A stretch of DNA of 64,000 nucleotides, taken from the NCBI GenBank assembly GCA_963762565.1, contig CAVXLD010000007.1:352001-416000 (forward strand), given 5' to 3'. This stretch comes from an uncultured Verrucomicrobiae bacterium. Its GTDB lineage: Bacteria; Verrucomicrobiota; Verrucomicrobiia; Chthoniobacterales; JAFAMB01. Each line of letters starts with the position of its first letter. The first letter of the stretch is position 1. Positions 24,418 through 57,344 of this stretch are shown piece after piece. The notes beneath the pieces were generated by a model. The model had not been told where the DNA came from and did no database searches. It saw only the letters and a program-made list of their open reading frames with translations. Made by a program: the position numbers and the translations under genes.

Positions 24418-24759
24418 CCGTCCCGTAGGGACTGAATGATGGTAGCCAGGCAGTTCACTGCCTGGAACCTCCCGCCCAAGACGATACCGTCTCGTAGAGA
24501 CGGTATGATTTAATGGCCCTCCTAATCGTGTTCAGGTCGATTTTTAGCGCTAACGCATGGAGACTGGTATCGGGTTTGGAGGAAATCGAAACGCGAGGCA
24601 ACTCACAAACGCTCGGCAGAACGCGCTTTCGAGCCCGCGTGCCAGCACGATTACGTGACCGTTAACTAATCATACCGTCTCTACGAGACGGTATCGACTT
24701 GGGTGCGGGTTCCAGGCAGTGAACTGCCAGGCTACGATCACTTAGTCCCTACGGGACGG
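24418..24759. mobile_element. Non-autonomous MITE/REPIN-like element with ~90-bp inverted arms
   Basis: Arms CCGTCCCGTAGGGACTGAATGATGGTAGCCAGGCAGTTCACTGCCTGG...ACCGTCTCGTAGAGACGGTATGAT at both ends; core homologous to 44009-44334. Confidence 0.85.
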
Positions 24760-36463: not shown

Positions 36464-37402
36464 ATGGAACTTCGCCACGCGCGGTATTTCGTCGCAGTTG
36501 CCGAAGAACTCAATTTCCGGCGTGCCGCCGCGCGTCTTCGTCTGGCCCAGCCATCGCTCAGCACGCAGATTCGCTTGTTAGAAGAAGACGTCGGAGTTCA
36601 ACTGCTTGAGCGAGACAGTCATAAAGTCGAATTGACTCCTGCGGGCCAGAGCTTTCTCGAAGGGTGCCGAAGGCTGCTTCAGGATGCCGACAGCTACGCG
36701 GTCACGGCGCGCCAGATTGCTCGCGGGGAGAGCATACCTCTGTCAATCGGCTTTGTTCCTTCGCTCGCTCACGGGCTGCTGCCGAGCGTTCTGCGGCGTT
36801 TTCGGCAACGATTTCCAGACGTAAAACTTCTTCTGAATGAAATGGATTCAACGGCTCAAATCGAGCAGATCGCCGGGAATCGCATTGACCTGGGCTTAAT
36901 CGGGCTTGGGTTACCGAAAGCGATGCCGGAACTGGAAATTGTCGTGGTAGCCGAAGAGCGCTTGGTGGCGGCCATCCCCCAGGATCATCCCCTGGCGCGG
37001 AGACCGCGGAAGGTAATCCCATTAAAGACCTTGGCGGCTGAACATTTTCTGCTCGGTTCGAGATTGAACGCACCGGTATTCAATCCCTGGATTATCGTCT
37101 TATGCCAGCAGGCTGGATTTCAGCCCCACGTACTTCAAGAGTCGGGCCAACCAATGACGGTGCTGAACTACGTCGCGGCGGGTCTAGGGATAACTATTTT
37201 GCCGGAACAATTCAGTCGTTTAGTGACGGCCGGCATCCGTTTTATACCATTAGCTCGGCCGACACCCGGGTATCGCTATTGCGCGGCTCGTATGCGGCAC
37301 AATCGCAATCCAGTTGTGGCAAATTTTATCCGGATCGCCGGCGAGGTTGGTAAGGGCGTTCGAGGCAGCGGCGAAGCCGTTTGTCCCGTAGGGACTAAAT
37401 GA
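36464..37402 (+). CDS. LysR-family regulator, divergent from prpC
   Basis: MELRHARYFVAVAEELNFRRAA...AQPSLSTQIRLLEE HTH. Confidence 0.95.
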   Translation: MELRHARYFVAVAEELNFRRAAARLRLAQPSLSTQIRLLEEDVGVQLLERDSHKVELTPAGQSFLEGCRRLLQDADSYAVTARQIARGESIPLSIGFVPSLAHGLLPSVLRRFRQRFPDVKLLLNEMDSTAQIEQIAGNRIDLGLIGLGLPKAMPELEIVVVAEERLVAAIPQDHPLARRPRKVIPLKTLAAEHFLLGSRLNAPVFNPWIIVLCQQAGFQPHVLQESGQPMTVLNYVAAGLGITILPEQFSRLVTAGIRFIPLARPTPGYRYCAARMRHNRNPVVANFIRIAGEVGKGVRGSGEAVCPVGTK

Positions 37403-38411
37403 GGATAGCCAGGCAATTTATTGCCGGGATGCGTGTAAAAAGTCGTCCCGTCCCAGCGGGACGGTATGATTCAGTCGGTTAACGGCGTCCTGAGATCCAA
37501 GGCATAGTCAGGGTAAAGACCACACCGTCCCTCCGGGACGGGACGTTTTTTTCTAACCTATTCCAGGCAATGAATTGCCAGGCTAGTGCGCCGTGGAACG
37601 CGCATCACAGCAGGTGAGAGTCCTGCATTGTTAAACCGTGAAAGAACAAGAAGTACAAACTAAGGGCGTCGTCGAGAGGCGGGGTCTGAAGCAACCGAGT
37701 ACGAGACACCTAGTCCGCAACGCAAGTGAACACGATTCGGCAAGGCAAGCTGGTGAGCCTGCTAGCCAAGAGCGAAACCAAGTCCGCCAAGAGCGGAACC
37801 AGTGGCATTCACAGAGCACGGGAAAGGATGGCCATTGGAGCTTGTCGGGTGGTTGGTGGTGGAATGGGAGTCGAAGTGATGAGCGGTTAACACGGGAGAA
37901 CCACGTAGAGAACGAGACTGGCGTTCATTCCGCTGAGAGGGCAAAGAGGGCGGACAAAGAACCAGGCTACGTGGAAGTCAGAGCGTCCATAGTAGCGAAG
38001 AAGCGGGGTAACGCCCGTGGAGCCAAGGGACGTAGGAAGATAGAACGAATCAGGTCAGCCGGAAGGAAGAAACCCCCGTTAGTGATCAACCTCTTGAGAG
38101 CTCGATCTATACAAGGGTGGAGAACTCTGTCCCGCGAAGGGAGCACAGAGGAATACCTTCCAGCCAACACTGATCCATTGCTGGCAGGCTGCCGCAAACG
38201 GCAGTCAGACACCAGGGAAAAGCAAGCCCGATGTCGCCGAACCTCGAACTTTCTCGTTGAGGTTCCCAGGTTCAATTCGGCATGTCAGTCTCACTGTAGA
38301 CCCTATCGACTGGAGAGCCGGATGCGGGAAAACCGCCTGTCCGGTTCGGAGGGAGGGGCGGCTCCAATACAGTCGTCCCTACCCCTATCCTTCATTCAGT
38401 CCCTTCGGGAC
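37383..38411. repeat. REP/MITE element of the GTCCC-GTAG-GGAC family, right arm interrupted by the intron
   Basis: Left arm from 37383; right arm up to 37585 plus 38389-38411 rejoins as its reverse complement. Confidence 0.85.
37586..38388 (+). mobile_element. ORF-less group II intron (IIB-like), 803 nt
   Basis: 5' GTGCG; D3-like GAAGCGGGGTAACGCCCGTGGAGCCAAGGG; D5 GAGCCGGATGCGGGAAAACCGCCTGTCCGGTTC with AGC triad; D6 with bulged A38381; 3' AT. Confidence 0.9.
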
Positions 38412-38456
38412 GGATCCTGCGGTTCAAGGGACACCACCGTTTTTTCAACAGCCCGC

Positions 38457-39365
38457 TTATGCGGCTGGACGCCAGCCAGCATCAGCCCAAAGTTCGCCGC
38501 TGACGGCGGCGTTGGTTAACATAAAACAGATGGCATCGGCAATTTCCTCCGGCTTGATCAACCGTTTCAGTTGCGTTTGCGGAATCACTTTGGTGCGAAT
38601 GTAATCTTCGCCAAGGGCCCGCACCATGGGGGTGTCGGTAAACCCGGGATGGATCACGCTGCAGCGGACCCCGTAATACATGGCCTCCGCCATGAGTGTA
38701 GAAGCAGCGCCTTCCAAACCTGCTTTAGTTGAGGAGTAAGAGATCTGCCCCGCATTGCCAACTGAGGCAATCGAACCAAGGAAAACGACGGCTCCTTGCA
38801 ATCCTTCCTCAGGCTGCCAGCGTTTGAGCCCGCGAGACACCCGATCCTTTGCCACTGCGGCTACAAGCTCGATCGCCCAATAAATCGGAGCGATCATATT
38901 GATTTCCACCACCTTGCGAAAATCATCCATCGGGTACATCACCACTTGGCCGCTCTGTTTATCGACTCTTACTGCCAGGGCGTCTTTGGTGATAGCCGCC
39001 GCCGGCACACAGATGCGCGGCAGGCCTGCCTTCGCCATGATATCGGCGTAAACTTCCTGCCGGAAAGCCGTATCGGTCGTGTCCCCACGATAGGCGATGG
39101 CGACCGCACGGCCAAACTCCGTATTGAGGTCGCGGGCCACTTGCGCAACCCGGTCACTGAAATCCACCATGGCGATACCAGCTGCCCCGCGCCTTGCCAT
39201 GTCGAGAGCCAAAGCTTGACCAATGCCGCCGGCGGCTCCCGTGATAACGGCAACTTGTCCTTTGATCGTTTGCATATGTAGAACGCTATCTGACGTCTCC
39301 AGGGTGCCAGCTTTCTGGCTAGCGAGGCCCGGCTCCTCGATAGTTCCAGGAATAATCGAGTTCAT
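38457..39365 (-). CDS. Short-chain dehydrogenase/reductase (3-oxoacyl reductase-like), copy 1 (alternative start 39275)
   Basis: TGAAGGIG, YSSTK, PGFTDTPM. Confidence 0.88.
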   Translation of the reverse strand: MNSIIPGTIEEPGLASQKAGTLETSDSVLHMQTIKGQVAVITGAAGGIGQALALDMARRGAAGIAMVDFSDRVAQVARDLNTEFGRAVAIAYRGDTTDTAFRQEVYADIMAKAGLPRICVPAAAITKDALAVRVDKQSGQVVMYPMDDFRKVVEINMIAPIYWAIELVAAVAKDRVSRGLKRWQPEEGLQGAVVFLGSIASVGNAGQISYSSTKAGLEGAASTLMAEAMYYGVRCSVIHPGFTDTPMVRALGEDYIRTKVIPQTQLKRLIKPEEIADAICFMLTNAAVSGELWADAGWRPAA

Positions 39366-44008: not shown

Positions 44009-44334
44009 CGTCCCGTAGGAACTGAATGATCGTAGCCAGGCAGTTCACTGCCTGGAACCTCGCACCTAAGTCGGACCCGTCTCCTAGAGACGGTATGATT
44101 GGTGGCTCGTCCTCGTGCTCGTTGAGCGCTAACGCACAGGGACTGGTGTCGTGATTGGAGAAAATCGAATCGCTGGGCAACTCTCGAACGCTCGGCAGAA
44201 CACGCTTTCGAACACGAGCAGGAACACGCGATCCATTAACTAATCATACCGTCTCTACGAGACGGGATCGATCTAGGCGGGAAGTTCCAGGCAGTGAACT
44301 GCCTGGCTATCGATCACTTAGTCCCTACGGGACG
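44009..44334. mobile_element. MITE/REPIN-like element, second full copy, with extra outer arms (43963-43985, 44356-44403)
   Basis: Same arms and same internal core as 24418-24759. Confidence 0.85.
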
Positions 44335-56583: not shown

Positions 56584-56667
56584 GTCCCGTAGGGACAGAA
56601 CGATAGTAGCCAGGCACGTTGTGCCTGGGATGGGTAAAAAGACGGCTCGTCCCGTAGGGACGATTGA
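56584..56667 (+). repeat. REP arm on the left flank of the transposase
   Basis: GTCCCGTAGGGACAGAACGATAGTAGCCAGGCAC...GTGCCTGGGATG...GTCCCGTAGGGACG. Confidence 0.88.
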
Positions 56668-56675
56668 GACGCGCA

Positions 56676-57128
56676 TTAGTCCAGGGCGTATTTCTCCTCA
56701 AAATCCAATCCGTGCCGTTTCAGAATAGCCAAATACTCTTCCCGAAAGGTCCGAGTGCGATGATGCTCCGGTTGGTTTTGGATGTATGCCATCGTCTCCG
56801 AAAGCTGGGAGGTGCTGACGCTGAAAGCGCCGTAGCCCTCTTGCCAACTAAAGTTACGGAATTGCCGAAAATTCTGGTGGATCCAGGCCGAGGATCCACC
56901 CTTGATCAATTGAATGGCTTTAGCAACGGACAGTGTCGTCGGCATCGATAGGAGCAGATGAACGTGGTCTGCGACCCCACCGACGCATCTTGGTTTGATG
57001 CCGTTTTGTTTGGCGATGCCGCCTAGGAAAGGCCATAGACGTTCTCTAAGTTCAGGGTTCAGAACCGGGACGCGCTCTTTGGTGGTGAAAACACAATGGA
57101 TGTTCAGAGAGAAAAACGTATTCGGCAT
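56676..57128 (-). CDS. tnpA: IS200/IS605-family HUH (Y1) transposase, REP-associated
   Basis: HCVFTTKER, DHVHLL (HUH), WQEGYGAFSVS, catalytic YIQNQPEHH. Confidence 0.93.
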   Translation of the reverse strand: MPNTFFSLNIHCVFTTKERVPVLNPELRERLWPFLGGIAKQNGIKPRCVGGVADHVHLLLSMPTTLSVAKAIQLIKGGSSAWIHQNFRQFRNFSWQEGYGAFSVSTSQLSETMAYIQNQPEHHRTRTFREEYLAILKRHGLDFEEKYALD

Positions 57129-57258
57129 AGACTAGAGATTATCCGAGATCACCAGATAAAGAAACATATTTTATTACTGTGTTTACGATGCAAACCGGCG
57201 ACCGAAATTTTAACTGTCCCAACGGGCGAGATGTTCGCAATTTACCGTTCGGCCGGAA

Positions 57259-57344
57259 TCAAGCGTCCCTACGGGACGCGATTCTTTCTCTGGCGCATCC
57301 CAGGCACTTCGTGCCTGGCTACTATCGTTCTGTCCCTACGGGAC
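57259..57344 (-). repeat. REP arm on the right flank of the transposase (inverted)
   Basis: Near reverse complement of 56584-56667. Confidence 0.88.

Follow-up and report, generated by a model that had tools for sequence, protein, structure and literature searches.

An ORF-less group II intron, apparently of a hairpin-targeting IIC-like lineage, inserted in a REP repeat of an uncultured Verrucomicrobiae bacterium

In those passages of the review by Zimmerly & Semper (2015; PMC4424553) on which we draw here, the targeting of hairpin motifs by group II introns is ascribed to class C alone, and three target specificities are distinguished, namely homing sites, terminators and attC sites. The same passages describe, for introns whose reverse transcriptase (RT) is without the endonuclease (En) domain, insertion into the lagging-strand template. 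Repetitive extragenic palindromic (REP) sequences enter the picture in a table of Tobes & Pareja (2006; PMC1525189), in which the entry 'Group II intron 2/9' is given as REP-associated in Pseudomonas putida KT2440. Here we describe an 803-nt group II intron that carries no RT open reading frame (ORF) and that interrupts a REP arm in the genome of an uncultured Verrucomicrobiae bacterium (assembly GCA_963762565.1, contig CAVXLD010000007.1, positions 352,001 to 416,000; this stretch of 64,000 nt is called the window, and all unprefixed positions refer to it). On the evidence given below we hold it to be quite likely that this is a non-autonomous member of a hairpin-targeting, IIC-like lineage, and that it entered the REP by reverse splicing.

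The intron begins with GTGCG at 37586 and ends with AT at 38387-38388, which satisfies the GUGYG / AY boundary rule of group II introns. Its 3' end (38313-38388) matches the Rfam model of domains V and VI, Intron_gpII (RF00029), with 54.8 bits (gathering score 40, E 5e-8), and this is the sole Rfam family reaching its gathering score across the 64-kb window; its 5' part matches group-II-D1D4-4 with 29.7 bits, below the threshold of 49. In a consensus fold of eight sequences, the window intron and seven relatives, domains I, II and III (D1-D3) are all closed, and 33 of the 121 pairs keep pairing through double changes, so that D1, of ~310 nt within a D1-D3 part of ~450 nt, is taken to be complete. 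At 38381, 7 nt from the 3' end, stands an unpaired A that is judged from the sequence to be the likely branch point. When a 444-aa RT of the lineage was used as query, no RT remnant was found in this intron or in the second copy that the genome contains. The long ORF that was called mechanically across the intron (37638-38519, 293 aa) runs past the 3' end, reaches the threshold of no Pfam family and is lacking in an ORF-less relative; we regard it as spurious, and the composition of the purine-rich strand probably accounts for it. These results bear out the original prediction, made by a model from the letters of the window, which had placed a complete group II intron without RT motifs at 37586-38388, had named the Intron_gpII and D1D4 models as a means of checking it, and had left the completeness of D1 as a possible weakness.

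The two flanks of the intron are the halves of a single REP arm, whose sequence corresponds to the left arm of the same REP doublet (REPIN) in reverse complement, with zero target duplication. This comparison confirms the precise insertion that had been proposed, excision of the intron restoring the reverse complement of the left arm. The same position within REPs is occupied repeatedly. In this genome (G000; 15 contigs, 93.7% complete) a second copy on contig C7 (320316-321118) differs by 4 substitutions in 803 nt and by no indel (99.5% identity), and among the 61 genomes searched, G000 and 60 relatives, 25 gave matches. Two fragmented genomes of the same genus, G003 and G004, have a ~90%-identical intron at many contig ends. 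Of their seven readable 5' junctions, six read ...TGCC(A/T)GGCTA, followed directly by the intron, in REP-type arms, and one lies after GGGCTA outside any arm; all five 3' junctions (5/5) continue into the linker and second hairpin of an arm, with sequences that vary. As had been expected of other copies, the second G000 copy and the G003 and G004 junctions, bar the one at GGGCTA, likewise follow GGCTA in REP arms.

The choice of site is mirrored in the intron itself. Among the 12 delimited relatives (11 complete and one more), a 6-nt loop that follows GAGCCTGC in D1, the exon-binding site 1 (EBS1), varies along with the end of the 5' exon, called intron-binding site 1 (IBS1). The loop TAGCCA goes with exons ending in (A/T)GGCTA (two introns each in G000 and G022), CCCTGT with ACAGGG (two in G027), GTAGGA with TCCTAT or CCCTAC (two loci), GAGTGA with GCACTC (two in G017) and TAGGGA with GCCCTA (G023). 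Six of the seven distinct loops pair over 5-6 bp with their own 5' exon, and the loop is unpaired both in the consensus fold and in the minimum-free-energy (MFE) fold. The suggestion that TAGCCA at 37763 is the EBS1 for TGGCTA, which would have fallen had the folded intron offered no such pairing, is thus upheld by the covariation with the exons and by the location of the motif in a hairpin loop of D1.

The intron's host is a REP/REPIN repeat of Acido-Lenti-1 type, tied to an IS200-like Y1 transposase that acts on single-strand DNA. With 150 of 1452 candidates scored, Rfam Acido-Lenti-1 (RF01687) gave at least 30 matches in the genome at the gathering score of 37 (37-51 bits), and at least 86 at E <= 1. 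Within the window, an arm at 24419-24465 matches the full model with 30.3 bits, the left arm of the host REPIN matches it over its full length with 18.8 bits, and the 5' exon part of the right arm gives a partial match of 12.6 bits, all of them below gathering. A strict structural scan (a stem of 8 bp with GG at its end, next CT(A/G), and after a linker a hairpin of 5 bp) found 83 arms in the genome against 4 in the reversed genome that served as control; it superseded a loose scan whose 694 matches were mostly false. These arms form 22 doublets in the (-,+) arrangement and none in the (+,-) arrangement, 18 of which span 210-338 bp and 4 of which span 677-773 bp. Each of the four long pairs encloses an open frame of ~116-167 aa. 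The one covered by our family-library scan, a 761-bp element in the window (56584-57344), consists of two inverted REP arms around a 151-aa ORF (56679-57131, minus strand) that matches Y1_Tnp with 99.7 bits and NCBIfam transpos_IS200 with 72.5 bits (cut-off 55); against NCBIfam REP_Tyr_transpos it reaches only 24.6 bits (cut-off 80). Three similar elements occur elsewhere in the genome. This IS200-like protein is a partner of the repeat family resembling the REP-associated tyrosine transposases (RAYT-like). The original prediction had spoken of a REP/MITE arm (MITE, miniature inverted-repeat transposable element). A repeat arm of a DNA-transposon system it is; the 'MITE', however, is the repeat of an IS200-like transposase, as the Acido-Lenti-1 matches, the inverted doublets and the arms flanking a Y1_Tnp gene indicate, and the same three observations speak against a classical MITE with terminal inverted repeats and target-site duplications as the host.

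The subfamily of arms that is used as target has 37 empty members in this genome, ending in AGGCTA (20) or TGGCTA (17) and split 19/18 between the strands; the +1 base is C after 35 of the 37. Two gene-less REP doublets of this subfamily lie in the window (24420-24757 and 44010-44333), both with empty GGCTA sites. In another REPIN of the subfamily, on contig C3 (84733-86600; L326), we observed an IS110-family transposase gene of 424 aa, whose product matches DEDD_Tnp_IS110 with 92.7 bits and Transposase_20 with 41.6 bits. Mobile elements of at least two kinds thus use REPs of the target subfamily as landing pads.

Insertion after GGCTA extends well beyond this genus. A wide scan with a pattern made of GGCTA and the intron family's 5' end, in which GGCTA is therefore imposed, returned at least 118 loci, many of them at contig ends; all further counts in this paragraph hold among the matches listed. 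The loci come from Planctomycetota, Verrucomicrobiota, Lentisphaerae, Acidobacteriota, Desulfobacterota and others. A stem with at least 7/8 Watson-Crick pairs ends exactly at the GG in 54 of the 78 loci that have at least 30 nt of exon, and because the stems differ between loci, the imposed GGCTA alone is constant. Of 20 loci tested, 6 have an Acido-Lenti-1 match that reaches the gathering score and lies 100-280 nt upstream, in 5 of them on the opposite strand, where the match is the partner arm of a doublet. Enough intron for a comparison of EBS1 was available at 32 loci, of which 4 were set aside (three of an unalignable family and one rearranged). In the remaining 28, with the alignment read by eye, the loop starts with TAGY in 22 and with TGGC in 3 more, the misfits being L251, L260 and L270. 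A strict test for TAGCY was passed by only 9 of the 32, as the alignment shows G-U pairs, or a pairing of just 4 bp, for many of the loops. Introns of ORF-less size occur at three loci (624, 708 and 941 nt), the 624-nt one backed by a match to domains V and VI. A 16-nt junction pattern tried for scanning the collection proved too unspecific, only 1 of 80 fetched loci being a true junction.

A hairpin stands just upstream of the insertion site in all listed target types but two. A perfect stem, at least 5 bp long and with its end 2-8 nt upstream of the site, is seen in 5 of the 8 types, as compared with 5% of random genome positions. The same association was seen in a sample that is unbiased with respect to the exon, drawn with a pattern constraining the intron sequence only (at least 121 loci, L328-L448). 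Among the matches listed for this sample, a perfect hairpin lies 2-8 nt upstream in 90 of 116 unique 30-nt 5' exons; in a 0-14-nt window the figure is 102 of 117 unique 5' exons against a background of 10%, with distances peaking at 3-5 nt. Exons ending in GCTA make up 16 of the 116, every one of them with a hairpin (16/16), and 17 exons have T-rich terminator-like tails, 15 of these with a stem. Other endings that recur behind hairpins in these listed matches are ...CCTA (15), ...GCTC (8) and ...GGAATGA/ATGA (5), which may represent further repeat families used as targets.

No EBS2 was detected: in a column-by-column search of the alignment, nothing was seen to pair with exon positions -14 to -7 in all relatives (no shared run of at least 5). 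One candidate, GGCAAGGCAAG (the GGCAAG stretch at ~37741-37752), was rejected, being paired inside a D1 helix in the consensus fold and giving way to another sequence in those G022 introns that share the target. EBS3 was not located in the intron either. Intact RTs of the lineage, known from metagenomes, are of 444 aa and consist of RVT_1 and GIIM only, without an En domain. In a comparison with solved structures that covered no RTs of class D, E or F, the closest matches were the GsI-IIC RT (5e-61) and 7uim (2e-60), followed by TeI4h (8.5e-45) and LtrA (5e-37); the 7uim entry is titled 'Group II intron reverse transcriptase/maturase', and we take it to be the RT of a IIC intron. Because no EBS2 was found, because hairpins precede the sites, because the En-less RTs are nearest to solved IIC RTs and because the review cited above ascribes hairpin targeting to class C, we read the lineage as IIC-like, which is meant as a statement on its mode of action and not on membership in class C. 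These features speak against the earlier view of the intron as IIB-like and not of the hairpin-targeting IIC type.

The state of the lineage RT differs between genomes. In G000, an RT-bearing sibling on C7 (605990-607903, 1914 nt) lies outside REP arms, with its RT frame in at least five pieces and with six stops, and C12 has a fragment of the lineage RT with stops, near which no domains V/VI reach the gathering score in the 1.6 kb examined. The lineage RT is therefore present only as pseudogenes in this genome, beside the two REP-targeting copies. The only intact group II RT of the assembly, a 453-aa RT/maturase on C11 (224501-225999, L010; TIGR04416, 382 bits), is 34-38% identical to the lineage RT; a weak domain V (39.3 bits) comes after it, and upstream of it D1-D4 could not be recognised. 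This locus may represent either an intron of another lineage that is truncated at its 5' end or an RT of intron-like type. On these grounds we do not accept it as the cognate helper, while some help from it is conceivable. In the same genus, G003 has an intact 467-aa RT frame, within an intron whose EBS1 is AGATGA, together with at least four 5' and at least four 3' junctions of the REP-targeting intron, and G004 (84% complete) has at least three 5' junctions and no RT found with this RT query. G022, of the same family, has an intact RT and two delimited ORF-less copies in REP arms. Such a distribution of RT genes fits a dependence on RT supplied in trans, without proving it, and to this extent the reliance on an RT in trans that had been foreseen is supported by the absence of RT from the copies and the intact RTs of G003 and G022. 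RT-encoding siblings, which were to be looked for, were located, though in G000 they are pseudogenes only. The ORF-less introns of G022 and G027 (L056-L059 and L062, ~745 nt) share one domain IV remnant and have three different EBS1 loops and three targets, and this combination suggests that they were retargeted after the loss of the RT gene.

Table 1. Positions of the intron, its domains and the host REPIN in the window
Feature	Position	Strand	Basis or remark
Left REP arm of host REPIN (hairpin 1, GGCTA, linker, hairpin 2)	37383-37428	-	structural scan
REPIN interior, two inverted GC hairpins (37444-37463, 37525-37545)	37444-37545	.	sequence
5' exon: hairpin 1 of right REP arm and CTA	37563-37585	+	IBS1 AGGCTA at 37580-37585
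ORF-less group II intron, 803 nt	37586-38388	+	boundaries, Rfam, folds, second copy
Domain I	37591-37897	+	closing helix 37591-37595 / 37893-37897; consensus fold, coordinate mapping
EBS1 TAGCCA	37763-37768	+	loop of D1 hairpin 37757-37773; covaries with 5' exon
Domain II	37900-37978	+	consensus fold
Domain III	37983-38033	+	best-conserved stretch, ~90% identity across genera
Domain IV remnant without RT gene	38034-38312	+	first ~50 nt still alignable to RT-bearing relatives
Domain V	38315-38347	+	AGC at 38316-38318; Rfam alignments, MFE fold
Domain VI	38350-38386	+	unpaired A at 38381; Rfam alignment, sequence
3' exon: linker and hairpin 2 of right REP arm	38389-38411	+	first base C, candidate IBS3

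The host REPIN (Table 1) sits between two convergent genes, one for a LysR regulator (36464-37402, plus strand) and one for a short-chain dehydrogenase (38457-39365, minus strand). The intron has the orientation of the LysR gene and lies downstream of the second interior hairpin, which has a T run after it and resembles a terminator; because of this position, transcription of the intron may be low. The gene for the LysR-type regulator has its final codons and its stop within the left REP arm, so that its 3' end is supplied by the repeat.

With this in mind, one may sketch how the intron came to its site. REP hairpin 1 has at its 3' foot the near-invariant (A/U)GGCUA, with which the EBS1 loop of the intron, UAGCCA, pairs, and because the pairing is at this foot, an intron able to splice would land, by the reverse reaction, between the two hairpins of the arm. 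The upstream hairpin would be recognised in place of an EBS2, as in IIC introns. Copying would need an En-less RT/maturase acting in trans, presumably one of the lineage RTs, and priming would presumably be provided by nascent DNA at the replication fork, as published work on En-less introns leads us to expect. All three lineage introns on C7 lie on the plus strand of a contig whose GC skew is positive in 30 of 33 20-kb windows, and this fits, if weakly, with the lagging-strand template as the place of insertion. According to this model, the two copies in G000, although recently acquired, are probably stranded now, because both lineage RT genes are pseudogenes.

Several points weigh against this model. 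Occupancy is low, with 2 filled among the 39 arms of the target subfamily and 37 compatible ones empty. No intact cognate RT was found in the 93.7%-complete G000, yet its two copies differ by only 4 nt. The one EBS1 loop without a partner is that of the decayed G000 sibling, with CTCTTA against the exon GAGGGAT and no pairing. The GC skew around the two copies is near zero (-0.018 to +0.013), which makes the strand argument a weak one. The 23-nt 3' exons of the two copies are identical, as gene conversion would also predict, a point tempered by the presence of near-identical arm variants, with one base different, elsewhere in the genome. As to the IIC-like reading, the absence of EBS2 rests on one column test and one fold, so that a non-homologous or short EBS2 could be missed, and the assignment is indirect, as a ranking of structure matches stands in for an RT tree with reference classes. 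The triad of domain V is AGC, and the D1-D3 part of canonical IIC introns is smaller than ~450 nt. Finally, the 5' part matches D1D4-4, whereas accessions that we take to be those of the Firmicute IIC introns of B. halodurans, O. iheyensis and G. kaustophilus stand near D1D4-1 in the seed file, as judged by file position and with the later placements unconfirmed.

It is possible, if on the whole doubtful, that the intron is a dead relic, an immobile and perhaps non-splicing remnant that is merely carried along. The decay of the cognate RT genes, the 37 empty compatible arms and the location behind a terminator-like hairpin would all be explained in this way. However, every domain and the consensus of domains V and VI are intact, the two copies are near-identical, and the family is multi-copy in genomes of the same genus, one of which has an intact RT. 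Such a relic would, moreover, describe the present state of the intron, and is compatible with reverse splicing into the REP as its origin.

We consider it unlikely that the intron spread at the DNA level, with an intron-bearing REPIN being moved by the Y1 transposase, or with gene conversion between REPINs, and without any reverse splicing. REPINs do provide homology for recombination, and the missing RT, the 99.5% identity of the copies and their identical 3' exons could be accommodated. On the other hand, the last 23 nt of the 5' exons, right beside the intron, differ at 4 positions between the two copies, their outer flanks and REPIN interiors are unrelated, and the REPIN of the second copy has no good left arm. 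The filled arms of G003 and G004 are many and different, and EBS1 fits the site and covaries with it across relatives, as is expected if the intron itself finds its target.

A conventional IIB homing intron, whose EBS1, EBS2 and EBS3 would read a long unique site that the repeat merely contains, is very improbable: the AGC of domain V, a D1-D3 part above the textbook IIC size, the D1D4-4 type (unlike the Firmicute IIC type, on the accessions assumed above) and a GGCAAG stretch that could pair with exon TTGCC speak for it, but this stretch is engaged within D1 and exchanged in G022 introns with the same target, nothing pairs with exon -14 to -7 across relatives, filled arms of other phyla have wholly different hairpin-1 stems and yet a fixed site, the RT has no En domain and comes closest to IIC RTs, and terminator-like targets occur within the same family.

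Returning to an intron that reverse-splices behind REP hairpins, we lean, with some reservation, towards a broader picture. A multi-phylum IIC-like lineage would be specialised on the invariant GCUA linker of Acido-Lenti-1 REPs, parasitising the repeats of a single-strand-DNA transposase system and adding a fourth target class, with ORF-less derivatives that persist and retarget as RT-dependent 'retro-MITEs'. If so, REP repeats would join the short list of natural targets of bacterial group II introns, and by pairing with the one invariant part of the repeat, the stems being left free, such an intron would gain dozens of neutral, strand-symmetric sites per genome. By its public description, the Acido-Lenti-1 motif often lies near group II introns and RT genes, and the proposed targeting would explain this closeness of an orphan motif; in the supplements of Weinberg 2010 we found its seed alignment and no text tying the motif to introns. 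The lineage would also offer a natural system for studying how introns without En recognise a DNA hairpin and how those without an ORF outlive the decay of their RT. In a literature search that left subscription journals mostly uncovered, the table entry of Tobes & Pareja (2006) was the only mention found of REP targeting by group II introns, and apart from that P. putida 2/9 entry the REP target and the cross-phylum spread appear to be undescribed in the searchable literature.

In its site choice, by EBS1 pairing and an adjacent hairpin, the lineage is of the known IIC kind. As in the IIC and IIC-attC introns of the review passages used here (PMC4424553), the RT is En-less, the EBS1-IBS1 pairing is short, no EBS2 was found, and insertion takes place a few nt 3' of a DNA hairpin and not at a long unique homing site; unlike the targets given there, that of the lineage is a REP (Acido-Lenti-1), neither a terminator nor attC. 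The lineage also differs in landing between two hairpins of one motif. Members of the same 5' family behind terminator-like hairpins with T runs, and an RT nearest to solved IIC RTs, are again IIC traits, whereas the 5' part of D1 matches another Rfam model than that of the Firmicute IIC introns, if the accessions are what we take them to be.

RmInt1 of Sinorhizobium meliloti uses a long sequence-specific site with EBS2. From what the source describes of it (PMC1802570), RmInt1 resembles the present lineage in being En-less and in homing into a multicopy mobile element, ISRm2011-2, but it carries its own RT. The ORF-less condition has its closest parallel in TeI3 of Thermosynechococcus elongatus, where, according to the passages of Mohr, Ghanem & Lambowitz (2010; PMC2882425) used here, an ORF deletion in domain IV combined with good EBS/IBS pairing likewise yields a small derivative that proliferates through RTs in trans ('driver' intron-encoded proteins) and whose EBS diverges into families. 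TeI3 and TeI4 are, however, IIB1 introns with an En-containing intron-encoded protein that is intact in the same genome, while the lineage RT lacks En and has decayed in this genome, and a hairpin repeat is targeted here. Lastly, other mobile elements use REPs as landing pads here, as do the insertion sequence (IS) elements in Tobes & Pareja (2006; PMC1525189); the group II introns in the table of that paper are a minority (2/9) given with no mechanism, whereas here a fixed position of the REP is the base-paired target of a whole lineage.

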